Source of the DNA: a virus
Length of the DNA: 24,637 nucleotides
UHGV virus genome: UHGV-0173695
Reading direction: 5' to 3' (one strand)
The notes below the pieces were generated by a model. That model was not told the DNA's origin. It made no database searches and saw only the letters and a list, made by a program, of their open reading frames with translations. Position numbers and translations under genes: made by a program. Positions 6,415 through 13,807 of this stretch are shown piece after piece (position 1 is the stretch's first letter; each line of letters begins with the position of its first letter).

Positions 6415-7215
6415 TTAACCGCGCTTCGCCTTCTGCGACGCGGTGGTTTTTCGTGTTGCAGGCTTCCGCGTTGTCTTTTTACTTTTGCTGCTTTCGTCCT
6501 GCGTCTGCGGTGTGCTGGCGTCTTCTGGTTCGGCTGCGGAATCGGCTTTTTTCAGGGCGCGGGAAAGGGTTGCAATCTCGCGTTTCACACCTGCGTTCGG
6601 GTTCAGGTGCATTGCTTCGCGCATCAGCTTCAGTGATGAGGCCATGCTGTCCGCATCGGTCAGGCCACGACGGGCAAAGGCACACGCCTTGCATAATTTG
6701 GCGCGCACTTCGTCCGGCATGTCCTGGTCGGTGACAATCTCCCGGAGGGTATCCAGTGGTTCGATAAAGGCGGATAAATCCGCGTCGGCATCCGTCCCGG
6801 CCTGCGTCAGTACCGGGTTGCAGATTTCTTCGGTCAGTACCGTGGCAGCAGTACGGCCAAAGTTATCCGGCATAATGAGGTTGTGACGGACCACATACGC
6901 ACCAATACGCAGCGCCAGCGGAAGATCGCCGCAGTCAATCGCCCACACCATCAGCGTGGCAATCACTTCATCCTGCTGCCCGCCGTCAGCCTCCAGCGTT
7001 CCCTCAATCCAGCCGGAAAAGTCCGGCAACAACTCTTTTTTGATGGCGGCTTTCGCGCTTCTGGCCTGTACGCCCTTAAGCCGGGCCTGTGCCAGACGCA
7101 GACGATACAGCACCTCTTCATGCGCGGTACGCGCGGCGTGGTCCACGCCTTCATTCGCCCGGCCTGCGCGCTGTGCCATCACGTTCTGCCAGTGTTGCTG
7201 TGCAGGAGTAATCAT
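6415..7215 (-). CDS. M: Terminase small (endonuclease) subunit M
   Basis: 266 aa; position after N; Lys-rich C-terminal tail; GGAGAG Shine-Dalgarno upstream. Confidence 0.85.
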   Translation of the reverse strand: MITPAQQHWQNVMAQRAGRANEGVDHAARTAHEEVLYRLRLAQARLKGVQARSAKAAIKKELLPDFSGWIEGTLEADGGQQDEVIATLMVWAIDCGDLPLALRIGAYVVRHNLIMPDNFGRTAATVLTEEICNPVLTQAGTDADADLSAFIEPLDTLREIVTDQDMPDEVRAKLCKACAFARRGLTDADSMASSLKLMREAMHLNPNAGVKREIATLSRALKKADSAAEPEDASTPQTQDESSKSKKTTRKPATRKTTASQKAKRG

Positions 7216-9327: not shown

Positions 9328-11079
9328 ATGATTCAGGACGCTTTTGTGCGCCAGCGTGCGCGGCAACTTTACTGGCAGGGTTATCCGCCCGCAGAAATAT
9401 CACGTCTGATGGGAATAAACCCGAACACGATTTATGCGTGGAAAAAACGTGACCAGTGGGATGAAACGCCACCCGTGCAGCGTGTCACGCAGTCCATCGA
9501 TGCGCGCCTCATCCAGCTTACTGAAAAACAGAATAAAACAGGCGGTGACTTTAAGGAAATAGACCTGCTGACCCGGCAGCTTAAAAAACTGCATGATGGC
9601 CAGCCGGATGCGACGGTCACAGGAAAGAAAGGCCGGGCGAAAAAACTCAAAAATCATTTCACGCCGGAACAGATTGCCGCACTGCGGGAAAAAATCATCA
9701 GCAGGCTGGAGTGGCATCAGCGGGGCTGGTTTGACTCCCTGACCCTTTGCAGGGAAGCCGGGATACGTAACAGGATGATCCTGAAATCCCGACAGATTGG
9801 GGCGACCTGGTATTTTGCACAGGAAGCGCTGCTGATGGCGCTGCGTGACGATGTGGCGCAACCTTACCAGCGTAACCAGATTTTTTTGTCTGCGTCGCGT
9901 CGTCAGGCGTTCCAGTTTAAAAGCATTATTCAGAAGGCCGCGGCTGAAGTTGATGTGGAGCTGAAAGGGGGCGATAAAATCATCCTCTCCAACGGCGCAG
10001 AGCTGCATTTTCTCGGCACTTCTGCTGCGTCGGCACAGTCCTATACGGGCAATTTTTATTTTGATGAATTTTTCTGGGTCAGTCGCTTTGCTGAACTGCG
10101 CAAGGTGGCTGGCGCTATGGCAACCCTCAGCGGACTGCGGCGCACCTACTTCTCCACGCCATCCACCGAAACGCACGAGGCATACGCCTACTGGAACGGC
10201 GACCGCTGGAACGAGAAAAAGGCCTCGCATAAACGCCAGCGTTTTTCTGTGGACTGGAAAACGCTGCATAACGGGCTTATCTGCCCTGACCGGACGTGGC
10301 GGCAAATTGTCACGCTGGAAGATGTGGTTAATCACGGCTGGAAACACACCGATATTGACGAAATCCGTGATGAAAACACCGAAGACGAGTTCCTCAATCT
10401 CTATATGTGTGAGTTTGTTCGCGAAGGGGAATCGGCATTTAACCTGAATATCCTGATTGGCTGCGGTGTTGACGGATACGACGACTGGAAAGACTGGAAA
10501 CCTTTTGCTCCCCGCCCGATGGGGAATCGTCCGGTATGGATTGGGTATGACGCAAACGGCAGCAGTGGCAACGGCGACAGCGGCGCTGTGTCCGTGGTGG
10601 TTCCTCCGGCTGTTCCTGGTGGCCGTTTTCGAACGGTGGAGACGCGACGCGTTCAGGGGCTGGAGTTTGAAGAACAGGCCAGAGTCATTGAAGAGTTCAC
10701 GTATCGCTACAACGTGGAACACATCGGCATTGATGTGACGGGCGGGAACGGGGAGGCTGTTTATCAGATAGTGAAACGGTTTTTCCCTGCTGCTATTCCG
10801 TACACCTTCACGCTGTCATCAAAACGGTCGCTGGTACTGAAAATGCTGCAAATAATGCGTGCCGGGCGGTGGGAATACGATCGCGCCGAACGCGAGCTGG
10901 TCGCGGCCTTTAACGCCGTGCGTAAGGTGAAAACACCGGGCGGCTTTATCACTTACGAAACGGACCGCGCGAGGGGGATCAGCCACGGCGACCTTGCGTG
11001 GGCAACCATGCTTGCTGTCATTAACGAACCGATTGGCGGCGAAGGAGAAAACGAGCGTTTCACGGTTATGGAGTTCTGA
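9328..11079 (+). CDS. P: Terminase large (ATPase) subunit P
   Basis: 583 aa; begins MIQDAFVRQRARQLYWQGYPPAEISRLMG with an N-terminal HTH as in P2 gpP; stop overlaps the Q start (TGATG). Confidence 0.95.
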   Translation: MIQDAFVRQRARQLYWQGYPPAEISRLMGINPNTIYAWKKRDQWDETPPVQRVTQSIDARLIQLTEKQNKTGGDFKEIDLLTRQLKKLHDGQPDATVTGKKGRAKKLKNHFTPEQIAALREKIISRLEWHQRGWFDSLTLCREAGIRNRMILKSRQIGATWYFAQEALLMALRDDVAQPYQRNQIFLSASRRQAFQFKSIIQKAAAEVDVELKGGDKIILSNGAELHFLGTSAASAQSYTGNFYFDEFFWVSRFAELRKVAGAMATLSGLRRTYFSTPSTETHEAYAYWNGDRWNEKKASHKRQRFSVDWKTLHNGLICPDRTWRQIVTLEDVVNHGWKHTDIDEIRDENTEDEFLNLYMCEFVREGESAFNLNILIGCGVDGYDDWKDWKPFAPRPMGNRPVWIGYDANGSSGNGDSGAVSVVVPPAVPGGRFRTVETRRVQGLEFEEQARVIEEFTYRYNVEHIGIDVTGGNGEAVYQIVKRFFPAAIPYTFTLSSKRSLVLKMLQIMRAGRWEYDRAERELVAAFNAVRKVKTPGGFITYETDRARGISHGDLAWATMLAVINEPIGGEGENERFTVMEF

Positions 11080-12125
11080 TGAGCAGAAAAAATAAAAAAG
11101 TGCGCATGAGTTCACGCATTGATCTCGCTGATGCGCTCAGGAAAGAATCGTCGCTCAGTGCATTCACATTTGATGGTCCTTATCGCCTGACCGGGCATGA
11201 TTTGCTGGACAATATGTACTGTGCTGATAACGGGCGGTGGTATGAAACCCCGGTGGACTGGTACGGTCTGGCAAGAGCTGCCCGGCAAACGTCCTGGCAT
11301 CAGTCTGCGCTTTACTTTAAGCGCAATGTATTGCTCGGTTGCTATATTCCGCACCCGCTGCTTTCCCGGCAGGATTTCTCGGCGCTGGCGCTGGACTGGT
11401 TTGTGTTCGGTAACGCATTCCTTGAGCTTCGAAGCAATATGCTCGGCGAACCGCTTAAATTACGGCACGCCCTGGCGAAATACATGCGACGCGGAAGCGA
11501 TCTTGAATCATGGTGGTATGTGCAGGATGGCAAGGACGCGTTTCAGTTTCGCCCTGGCAAAGTGTGCCACCTGATGAATCCGGATATTAACCAGGAAATC
11601 TACGGCATGCCGGAATATCTCGGCGCATTACTCTCGGCCAGCCTGTCTCATTCGGCGGACATGTTCAGAAAACTGTATTACGACAACGGATCCCACGCCG
11701 GGTGCATCATCTACATCGGTGCAGCGCAGGTAAACCGCGAAAGCATGGACTCCCTGAAAGAAACGTTACAGGGTGCGCGTGGTGGTGGTGCATTTAAAAA
11801 CGTGCTCATTCATGCGCCCAACGGTGGCAAAGAAGGTGTGCAAATTTTGCCGTTCCAGCAGATCACAGCAAAGGATGAGTTCATGAATGTTAAGGCGGCA
11901 TCCCGTGATGATGTGCTGGCTGCGCACCGCGTTCCGCCGCAACTGATGGGGGCGATGCCGGGTGAAAAAAGTGCGTTTGGTGATGTGGAGAAGGCCGCGC
12001 GGGTTTACGCAATTAACGAGCTGATGCCCGTCATGGAGGCCATGAAGCACATCAATGACTGGCTTGGCGAAGAGGTGATCCGCTTTAACCCTTACGCACT
12101 GTTAGATACCCAGCCCACATCCTGA
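11079..12125 (+). CDS. Q: Portal protein Q
   Basis: 348 aa, size as P2 gpQ; immediately follows P; followed by a hairpin and the non-coding cos-proximal region. Confidence 0.9.
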   Translation: MSRKNKKVRMSSRIDLADALRKESSLSAFTFDGPYRLTGHDLLDNMYCADNGRWYETPVDWYGLARAARQTSWHQSALYFKRNVLLGCYIPHPLLSRQDFSALALDWFVFGNAFLELRSNMLGEPLKLRHALAKYMRRGSDLESWWYVQDGKDAFQFRPGKVCHLMNPDINQEIYGMPEYLGALLSASLSHSADMFRKLYYDNGSHAGCIIYIGAAQVNRESMDSLKETLQGARGGGAFKNVLIHAPNGGKEGVQILPFQQITAKDEFMNVKAASRDDVLAAHRVPPQLMGAMPGEKSAFGDVEKAARVYAINELMPVMEAMKHINDWLGEEVIRFNPYALLDTQPTS

Positions 12126-12152
12126 CGCGCTTCGCTTGTCTGCTGCTTCGCC

Positions 12153-12175
12153 GGGGCATAAAAAATTTATGCCCC
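12153..12175 (+). terminator. Hairpin downstream of Q (GGGGCATAAA-aaa-TTTATGCCCC); weak terminator candidate
   Basis: Perfect 10-bp inverted repeat 28 bp after the Q stop; no clear T-tract follows, so its function as an intrinsic terminator is uncertain. Confidence 0.35.
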
Positions 12176-12549
12176 GACTCTCCAGCTCCTGTATCAATCA
12201 GATAATTTCACGACGCCTTCCAGTTTATCGCCACCATCGACGGTCAGACTCTTACGCAATCCTACCGCGTTGACTGTATGTTCTCGCCGCCTCAGTGCGA
12301 TTTTGACGGCCTTACCTTTCCCCCCATCAAATCAAAAGCCCTCACATCTTTTTCACGCTCAGCGTGAGAAATATGGCCATTCTGTTGTGTCGCTGCGACA
12401 TCGCTCAGGGAATGCTATTTACCCCCTGAAACGCGGGCTGTTCCCCCGTCACCTGCGCGCAGAAAAAACGCGTTTTTTTGTGCACGCACGGATCCTTGAC
12501 GGATCCAGCCGCCACGCGGGCCGGAAGGGCAAAAAGTCGTTCAAAAAAA

Positions 12550-12576
12550 TTGTGCAAGTTTGTGCACTATTGTGCA
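12550..12576. repeat. Three direct repeats of TTGTGCA phased exactly 10 bp apart
   Basis: aTTGTGCAagtTTGTGCActaTTGTGCAg read directly from the sequence (copies at 12550, 12560, 12570). Confidence 0.6.
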
Positions 12577-12872
12577 GTTTGAAAATGAGCATATATTTAA
12601 CACGCGCGTTAGCTTGAGTTGACTAAAAATTTCAGTGGATTGGGCGAGGTGAAACTATAAACGCAAAATCCCAGTGACTAGCTAACAACAATCCCAGAGT
12701 GTGTTTGAATCTGGAGGGGTTAATATGAAAGATTGTTTGACAAATTTGATGTTTTCTAAATGCGTTAACCACTATGAGGCGGAGAGTGCATCTCCGCCTT
12801 TGTATGTGCGTCGGGCATGGCACGCTCGTTTCGTTTGTGCGCCCGTTCAGGGTTTCATTCTCTGATATTCAG

Positions 12873-13160
12873 TCAGCGTGGATAAATTAACTTGAATTTG
12901 AGGAAGTTTTGTTTAATCCAGTCTTTAACATTTTCCCTTCCCTGAATACCTGATGGTAAGTGTTCGTGAATCATCCATTCGACAATGAGTTTCTCTTTCA
13001 GGGAGTATGCCTTAAAGGAATTAAGCATATTTAGTACTTCATAACCCTCTTTGCGGCTAAACCGATGGCGGTCAGCAGCGGTTTTCGTGGGATCATCTCC
13101 TGGCAAAGCAGTCCAACTGTAATCGTCATAAAATAAATCGCTTCTTTTAATATCGGTCAT
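12873..13160 (-). CDS. Hypothetical protein, 95 aa, AT-rich; cargo gene at the tin/old position
   Basis: Complete ORF; weak Shine-Dalgarno (AAGGA) upstream; a stem-loop (CCACCTC...GAGGTGG) lies in the 66-bp gap from the upstream gene; no family recognised. Confidence 0.45.
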   Translation of the reverse strand: MTDIKRSDLFYDDYSWTALPGDDPTKTAADRHRFSRKEGYEVLNMLNSFKAYSLKEKLIVEWMIHEHLPSGIQGRENVKDWIKQNFLKFKLIYPR

Positions 13161-13226
13161 TTGATTATCCTTTTCAGAAGAACCACCTCTCCAACTATTG
13201 TTGAGGTGGTGAAAAAGCAGAAATCG

Positions 13227-13505
13227 TTATGCAGCTTTGAGCAGTGCGCTGCTCATTGCATAGTCGTACCCAAGCATGTATGCCTCAAAGGCGTCTTTAT
13301 GTCTGACTGTGCCAGCCTGGCTATATGGAATATTTGCCAGGAAGGAATCATCTTTAGCTTTAGGAATACCGATCATTGCGTGAAGTACACCAAGCTCGTA
13401 TGCGCAGGCAGCGCAGCGGTGGCGGCCTGTCTGTCCCTGGTTATCGGGAAGGTGTGAGTATTGGGGGTTGTATCGGTGGGAGTTTTTACAAATCTTTATA
13501 CCCAT
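13227..13505 (-). CDS. Hypothetical protein, 92 aa; cargo gene at the tin/old position
   Basis: Complete ORF with GAGGT about 9 nt upstream of the ATG; no family recognised; the overlapping plus-strand ORFs look less protein-like. Confidence 0.45.
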   Translation of the reverse strand: MGIKICKNSHRYNPQYSHLPDNQGQTGRHRCAACAYELGVLHAMIGIPKAKDDSFLANIPYSQAGTVRHKDAFEAYMLGYDYAMSSALLKAA

Positions 13506-13611
13506 ATTTGATTTACCTCAATAAAATGAGGTGTTCACCTTTACATGGGCACACGCAGAAAATACGATTCCGGCGAGCTCAAGAGGTAGATGACACCTCG
13601 ATTTCTTTGGC

Positions 13612-13642
13612 GCCCCAATAGTTACCGCTATTGGGGCGTTTT
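13612..13642 (+). terminator. Rho-independent terminator-like hairpin (plus strand)
   Basis: Perfect 10-bp stem GCCCCAATAG / CTATTGGGGC with loop ttaccg, followed by GTTTT. Confidence 0.5.
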
Positions 13643-13784
13643 CCTATGCATGACACACAAACAAAGTGGTCATATCGTGATCGATCCTACAAAATCCCAT
13701 ACAACTGTCAAGGGTATTGATCGTTTTAATCGATAGATAAATCAATATCTATCTGTTTAACAGATCGATTATTAGGGTAAACAT

Positions 13785-13807
13785 GAAAAAACACCCGTGA
13801 AGGGTGT
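13785..13807 (-). terminator. Rho-independent terminator downstream of the parR-like gene (minus strand)
   Basis: Minus-strand hairpin ACACCC-ttca-CGGGTGT followed by a T-run (plus strand AAAAAACACCCGTGAAGGGTGT), 8 bp after the ParR stop. Confidence 0.55.

Follow-up and report, generated by a model that had tools for sequence, protein, structure and literature searches.

In phage lambda, the cosB site is made up of the elements R3-I1-R2-R1 and is bound by gpNu1 together with IHF, and cosQ is a single short element near the nick. The pac sites of the SPP1/SF6 type contain phased short repeats that are bound by an oligomeric small terminase, with the DNA wrapped (PMC7617512). For the P2 family, Ziermann and Calendar (1990) is the study that later papers cite for a core shared by phages P2 and 186 and the satellite P4, also described as a 55-bp core (PMC9122126, PMC5694545), and a hotspot for accessory and defence genes is known to adjoin cos in phages of this family (PMC9122126). 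DNA recognition by P2-family terminases is poorly defined, and the map that we present here consists of four short sites at fixed offsets from a cos core, with a middle stretch that appears to be dispensable.

The DNA that we analyzed, referred to below as the window, is the 24,637-nucleotide UHGV virus genome UHGV-0173695. It is a P88-like prophage (Xuanwuvirus, Peduoviridae, P2 family), 96–97% identical over approximately 70–75% of its length to phage P88, Citrobacter phage Shae_phiSM and others. Capsid and scaffold genes lie between the terminase genes M and P. The portal gene Q is followed by approximately 290 bp of conserved non-coding DNA, the cos region, and a stretch that is variable among relatives, beyond which are found a ParR-like stability gene (PF10784), parM, a gene for a 940-aa replication protein A, and an integrase gene. 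The repeat array that is the subject of this analysis lies approximately 425–428 bp past Q, and the layout of P, Q and cos is identical in all related loci. The features of the region are collected in Table 1.

Table 1. Features of the cos region and the genes related to it, in window positions; offsets (+) are counted from the end of the core to the start of the pentamer.
Feature	Position	Strand	Remarks
Terminase small subunit gpM	6415–7215	-	PF05944; shares 36% identity with P2 gpM; one of two candidate readers of the sites
Terminase large subunit gpP	9328–11079	+	N-terminal helix-turn-helix (HTH), residues 6–63 (PF06056), ATPase and RNaseH-like nuclease; candidate reader
Portal gpQ	11079–12125	+	cos region always downstream of gpQ
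Whole functional cos segment, as delimited by comparison	12412–12577		Sole stretch common to P88-like prophages and a satellite lacking portal and terminase
Predicted cos cleavage core GGGCTGTTCCCCCGTCACC	12435–12453		Homologue of the P2 19-nt cohesive end, orientation relative to Q kept
Spacer between core and site 1	12453–12478		Palindromes CTGCGCGCAG (12453–12462) and AAAAAACGCGTTTTTT (12463–12478), leading into a T-run
Site 1 (proximal) TTGTGCAC	12478–12485	+	GTGCA at +27; counterpart of TTTTAATGCA at +25 in P2, 186 and P4
Variable middle of fixed length	12486–12542		Keeps sites 1 and 2 at 71–72 bp
A7 tract	12543–12549	+	Abuts the array; conservation limited to the GTGCA lineage
Site 2 TTGTGCA	12550–12556	+	GTGCA at +99
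Site 3 TTGTGCA(C)	12560–12566	+	GTGCA at +109
Site 4 TTGTGCA	12570–12576	+	GTGCA at +119; last conserved bases before the cargo hotspot

Attention had been drawn to the array by an earlier note, which described three TTGTGCA repeats at exact 10-bp phasing near cos. Both parts of that description held. The plus strand at 12543–12577 reads AAAAAAATTGTGCAAGTTTGTGCACTATTGTGCAG, and the three copies are found at exactly the positions claimed, with start-to-start spacings of 10 and 10 bp. As a word, TTGTGCA is without enrichment in the window (8 copies, with 6.2 expected); it is the sole 7-mer of the window that is repeated three times at exactly 10 bp, and when the window was shuffled 2000 times with its dinucleotides preserved, no 7-mer triple at 10 bp appeared. 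Such a triple is far more than chance would give. The note had overlooked one more copy, TTGTGCA(C) at 12478–12484, which lies 72 bp upstream of the first copy of the array; the four copies form a 1+3 arrangement, with the array as its distal portion. Proximity to cos was borne out as well: counted from its first GTGCA, the array begins 99 bp past the homologue of the 19-nt core of P2 and 186.

This core was located by an alignment of 59 distinct relatives, in which it is among the best conserved blocks. The P2 cohesive end, GTGCTTTCCCCGCCTCGCC when read on the window's strand and GGCGAGGCGGGGAAAGCAC as the P2 19-nt sequence, aligns without gaps to the window core and is identical to it at 13 of 19 positions. 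The sequence GCTCCCCCGCCTCGCC, present in L015 and L101, is an intermediate that bridges the window core and the P2 core, and L170 also links them. On the strength of this homology, 12435–12453 is the predicted cleavage core, and the exact positions of the cuts are predicted in the same way. An orientation inverted relative to P2, derived from the G+C-rich element at 12508–12531, was dropped once the homologue at 12435–12453 had been aligned. The ends of P88_4B11, the only linear record of the group, map to 12531/12532 and could be taken for a physical cos with sites flanking the cut. This reading was also dropped, because the authors of that record chose nt 1 relative to reference genomes (PMC6969025), and record ends set by such a convention are no evidence for a physical end; no P88-like genome with mapped ends was found. 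In two further contigs, ends near the array proved to be merely storage-chunk boundaries.

The two palindromes of the spacer in the window are adjacent and perfect. A dyad and a T-run also fill the equivalent 19-bp spacer in P2, 186, P4 and L015; their sequences differ, and it is symmetry, not sequence, that seems to be conserved here. Site 1 forms the right edge of the conserved core, which is approximately 55 bp long by our count, and the window carries TTTTTTTGTGCA at +20 to +31. By the same count, the 55-bp core of the literature would begin at GCGCGCA, include the 19-mer and end with the first ATGCA (+29); in 2374 E. coli genomes, +29 is also the point at which BLAST matches to P2 break off. 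The variable middle contains a direct repeat of ACGGATCC at 12488–12495 and 12499–12506, which includes two GATC sequences, as well as the G+C-rich element. The copies of this 8-bp repeat are 11 bp apart and supply two Dam (GATC) sites; P88-type sequences have this repeat, others have it in part, and P2, 186 and P4 lack it.

When sequences were anchored on the end of the core, with offsets giving the start of RTGCA, the same arrangement appeared across the P2 family. ATGCA occurs at +25, +97, +107 and +119 in P2, and at +25, +97, +107 and +120 in both 186 and the satellite P4. In the window and in Enterobacter phage phiT5282H, GTGCA occurs at +27, +99, +109 and +119, and in other lineages (L015, L101 and L102) the same pentamer occurs at +25, +97, +107 and +117. 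Three sites could be placed in Ralstonia phage RSA1 (ATGCA at +25, +96 and +106) and in Pseudomonas phage phiCTX (CTGCA, CTGCG and CTGCA at +25, +96 and +106; NC_003278 35150–35580). The start-to-start distance between sites 1 and 2 is 71–72 bp in every one of these elements, and the DNA between the sites is unrelated among P2, 186 and P4. A search for the motif in related phages, which had been proposed as a check, returned RTGCA sites (CTGCR in phiCTX) at nearly constant offsets from the cos core in these relatives. By this comparison, the three repeats are sites 2–4 of a predicted 1+3 arm that P2-family members have in common.

To quantify conservation in the lineage of the window, 129 GTGCA-type sequences were grouped into 37 types (≤90% identity). 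Of these types, 34 have RTGCA at site 2, 26 have it at site 3 and 24 have it at site 4, compared with 0–1 of 37 at fifteen control offsets. Information content per column is approximately 1.5 bits at site 1 and 1.1 bits at site 2, whereas the middle has 0.6 and the DNA past site 4 has 0.14. Scanning viral contigs for the P2-type core gave 77 right-arm types, which comprised 65 beside phage genes, 10 P4-like satellites and 2 unassigned. In these, RTGCA occurs at +25 in 73 of 77 types, at +96–98 (site 2) in 64, at +106–108 (site 3) in 62 and at +115–121 (site 4) in 45, over a background of 0.4% per 3-nt window in the middle, where pairwise identity is 0.34. In the window, the three distal copies happen to be perfect, but this is not a requirement, as many relatives have degenerate versions of sites 3 and 4; where Q is approximately 68% identical, these two sites drift to TTRYGCR.

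Arrays of a similar appearance were also seen outside the family. Unrelated viral contigs contain 3–5 TGTGCA units at 10-bp spacing. In a small sample of seven such contigs with annotated neighbouring genes, five of the arrays adjoin terminase or portal genes, and the other two adjoin primase or integrase genes.

Judged by its features, the window contains a P2-family cos: it has the position after Q, the homologue of the 19-nt core, the core composed of dyad, T-run and RTGCA, the distal sites, and the sharing with a satellite. The distal-site criterion (+97, +107 and +117–120) was derived in this work rather than from the literature. The strongest evidence comes from the satellites, which use the terminase of a helper and share little else with it. 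P4 retains four ATGCA sites at the P2/186 positions, and other P4-like satellites retain the sites too (10 P4-like types in all). The P88-type cos is carried by a P4-like E. coli satellite (L211 4163–13162; NZ_CM132658, adjoining hpt) whose genes include those for an integrase, an 889-aa toprim primase, an Icd-like protein, an ogr/Delta-like protein and a P2-family major capsid protein (423 aa, PF05125). No portal or terminase gene was found among the annotated genes of this 14-kb locus, and satellites of the same type are present in 55 of 5426 complete E. coli genomes. The only DNA that it shares with P88-like phages is a stretch of approximately 166 bp (L211 7001–7167, corresponding to window ~12412–12577), which ends at repeat 3. 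Its signal consists of the core, TTTTTTGTGCAC, a diverged middle and AAAAAATTGTGCAaatTTGTGCActtTTGTGCA, and all four TTGTGCA copies are kept. The sharing works as a natural deletion analysis, in which 12412–12577 would be what a packaging parasite must keep, and it offers a natural minimal definition of a cos of this type (~166 bp).

Taken together, these comparisons lead us to consider it probable that the three TTGTGCA repeats are sites 2–4 of a four-site recognition arm of the prophage cos, that is, a cosB-like docking array for terminase. The arm would lie on one side of the core at 12435–12453, with the proximal site TTGTGCAC approximately 25 bp away and the distal sites 72, 82 and 92 bp further. 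All four sites have the same orientation and would face roughly one side of the helix, since 72 bp amounts to approximately seven turns and the distal sites are one turn apart. Terminase could bind them cooperatively via gpM and/or the N-terminal HTH of gpP, with the non-conserved 64-bp middle, constant in length, being bent or looped. The gpP nuclease would thereby be positioned on the core, make a staggered cut, and allow packaging to start from this end, so that the arm would act at initiation rather than at termination. Binding of a protein to the array, and the identity of that protein, are predictions from sequence comparison. The earlier note had proposed a cosB-like array recognized by the terminase small subunit. 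The cosB-like array fits all of the comparative evidence; gpM as its reader is not established, and the HTH of gpP is an equally good candidate.

Part of the case for gpP comes from the putative recognition helix of its N-terminal HTH, within residues 1–68 (window 9328–9530), which differs consistently between the phages with the two site types. In ATGCR phages the helix reads KRPTVQSWKQRD, with 69 A-type sites to 1 G-type, and in GTGCR phages it reads NxNT[IV]Y[AS]WKKRD, with 81 G-type sites to 5 A-type. This association between HTH and motif is suggestive; it involves two clades and is phylogenetically confounded, and gpM also differs between the ATGCR and GTGCR clades (36% identity). The 186 record notes a putative helix-turn-helix in the P homologue. 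A sequence search for relatives of gpM or gpP with solved structures returned none. We can postulate, tentatively and with considerable doubt, that P2-family terminases read the 1+3 code via the N-terminal HTH of gpP, alone or with the small subunit, and that the letter of the lineage (ATGCA in P2 and 186, GTGCA in P88-like phages, CTGCR in phiCTX) together with the core defines compatibility groups of helpers and satellites. If so, P4-like satellites would belong to helpers of the P2/186 type, and the capsid-gene-carrying L211 satellite to P88-like helpers, and the arrangement would provide a sequence criterion for predicting which satellites a helper can package.

Instead of terminase itself, the reader of the sites could conceivably be an architectural protein of the host that helps terminase in the way that IHF helps at I1 of lambda cosB. 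The motif is nearly constant (ATGCA, GTGCA or CTGCA) although the terminases are only 36–44% identical and the hosts range over Escherichia, Pseudomonas and Ralstonia, and a conserved host protein would explain this near-identity equally well; such a protein would also suit the satellites. However, the IHF consensus WATCAANNNNTTR is absent from 12412–12577 at ≤1 mismatch, and direct repeats do not, on inspection, fit a pair of CRP half-sites. Moreover, the A/G variant follows the phage lineage within E. coli, which a single host protein would not require. We know of no enterobacterial factor with an RTGCA-type motif, and we consider a host reader improbable. Among other regulators, Ogr/Delta sites (TGT-N12-ACA), cox boxes and CRP sites were rejected by inspection, as none of them fits; the Cox protein of P2 and the Apl protein of 186 differ, yet P2 and 186 share ATGCA sites.

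A different question is whether the arm acts at the end of packaging, in the manner of cosQ at the terminal cut, rather than at initiation. The sites are located at the right end of the mature chromosomes of P2, 186 and P4, which counts in its favour. On the other hand, a 100-bp arm with several sites resembles cosB and is unlike the single short cosQ, and to a role at the terminal cut we likewise give only a small chance.

Whichever cut the arm serves, examination of the DNA around the array in other genomes revealed what it travels with. The P88-type signal occurs in approximately 20% of complete E. coli genomes. Matches to 12420–12720 were obtained in 1108 E. coli genome records, and those sampled end at 12576–12588, mostly at 12576–12577, the last base of repeat 3; the exceptions, with matches over at least 80% of the length of 12420–12720, are 3 of 5426 E. 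coli genomes. Downstream of the array are genes on the opposite strand in P88 and phiT5282H, the 3' end of psu in P4 and a terminator in 186. In viral contigs, wherever sufficient upstream DNA is available, the cos family is always downstream of a Q homologue (69–100% identity), and this linkage holds with a replication protein A of the P88 type (87–98%) or of another type (31–34%), and with or without parMR. Among all of its neighbours, only the packaging genes stay linked to the array.

Variability is also seen upstream. In six related loci, approximately 620 bp of inserted DNA separate the portal gene from cos, so that Q ends approximately 1050 bp before the array; this points to a second variable spot, on the Q side of cos.

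The pattern downstream bears on the second candidate of the earlier note, an activator site for a promoter just past the array, and more generally on the possibility that the cargo is transcribed from a promoter for which the array supplies the -35 region or a binding site for an activator or repressor. TTGTGC (12570–12575), a 17-bp spacer and TATATT (12593–12598) resemble a weak promoter. In P2, the -35 sequence TTGAAT of the old/tin promoter overlaps GAATGCA of site 4 (P2 33424–33464; L007 1125–1165), and one cargo family has, approximately 21 bp past the array, a TTGAC with a ribosome-binding site and a short ORF behind it. However, a consensus scan gave no promoter at the array, and the array is conserved while the DNA past repeat 3 changes completely in content and orientation, so that in P4 and 186 it faces the end of psu or a terminator. 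A promoter would also give no reason for the array to stay at a constant distance from the cos core and from site 1. The TATATT noted near 12593 is present in the sequence, but it is part of the variable cargo, outside the conserved block. We therefore find a promoter function of the array very unlikely, and the comparison did not support an activator site as the reason for the array. A secondary effect of the array on transcription of the cargo is possible, and in P2, terminase binding and old transcription could interfere with each other.

The cargo of the window (12577–13800) is rare and contains ORFs of 95 aa (12873–13160, minus strand) and 92 aa (13227–13505, minus strand), neither of which had a match in Pfam. 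A search of 12100–13300 for Rfam RNA families returned none. The leader of the cargo, at 12597–12810, recurs before several cargo types, with TTGAC(A) approximately 21 bp past repeat 3, a GGAGGGG ribosome-binding site, an 11-codon ORF (M[KR]KM[YF]DEFDGF) and then a hairpin at 12777–12785/12791–12799. In the window, the -35-like hexamer is TTTAAC, and the short ORF appears to be frameshifted into a 46-aa ORF (12725–12865). The leader looks like a leader-peptide or attenuator unit.

The abrupt loss of homology right after repeat 3 in approximately 1100 genomes, along with the known hotspots beside cos (PMC9122126), could also mean that the array is itself a recombination boundary for the exchange of cargo at the defence hotspot. 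A sharp boundary is expected wherever constraint ends, though, and P4 retains the array beside psu even though its hotspot is found at the opposite side of cos. The distance between the array and the cos core is fixed as well, and we regard a primary role in recombination as highly improbable. With the array taken as a part of cos, its position explains where the cargo and defence hotspot of P88-like prophages starts.

A minus-strand intrinsic terminator, flagged by a pattern scan at 12567–12552 (hairpin GTGCA/TGCAC with a T-run opposite the A-tract), and a partition centromere for ParMR, whose genes parM/parR are 1.2 kb away, have next to no likelihood, since the hairpin (-7.0 kcal/mol, z = -0.2 against shuffled sequences) has no added stability, P2, 186 and P4 are without a T-run at that place, and the array is present in relatives without parMR (phiT5282H and lineages with an A protein 31–34% identical). 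A parC site in particular was rejected, as the array is located 1.2 kb downstream of parR rather than upstream of parM and is not co-inherited with parMR.

Set against the described systems, the cos of P2, 186 and P4 shares with the window the position after Q, a homologous 19-nt core, a spacer with dyad and T-run, the four-site arm and the sharing with satellites. The window differs from it in having TTGTGCA instead of (A)ATGCA, three perfect distal copies at exactly 10 bp, and an A7 tract before them. Its core differs from that of P2 at 6 of 19 positions, and its cohesive ends would therefore not match those of P2. The distal sites are not annotated in the reference records of P2, 186 and P4, and in the literature that we searched, the shared core, or 55-bp core, is what is described (PMC9122126, PMC5694545), with no account of distal repeats.

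Like the window, lambda cosB has short repeats on one side of the nick site, a span of approximately 100 bp and a spacer to be bent. In contrast to lambda, the small subunit of the window matches PF05944 only and not the Nu1 family, an IHF consensus is lacking, the sites are all direct with a fixed 72-bp gap, and the large subunit has an N-terminal HTH of its own. The pac sites of SPP1 and SF6 are more distant, as they belong to headful systems with unrelated proteins and have binding sites on both sides of the cut. Within the P2 family, the record of phiCTX (NC_003278) annotates a 'region3; containing R4,R5,R6 repeats' and IHF sites around cos, with no function stated. The motif of phiCTX differs (CTGCR), and R4–R6 lie in the same neighbourhood as the sites at +25, +96 and +106; the annotation means that for at least one member of the family, repeats close to cos were already on record. 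The 1990 study by Ziermann and Calendar reportedly included a deletion analysis, which may already cover the arm. The signal described here is of a known kind, a cos with terminase-binding repeats, and that of the window is a lineage-specific P2-family cos; the family-wide 1+3 map and the pairing of helpers with satellites may be new.
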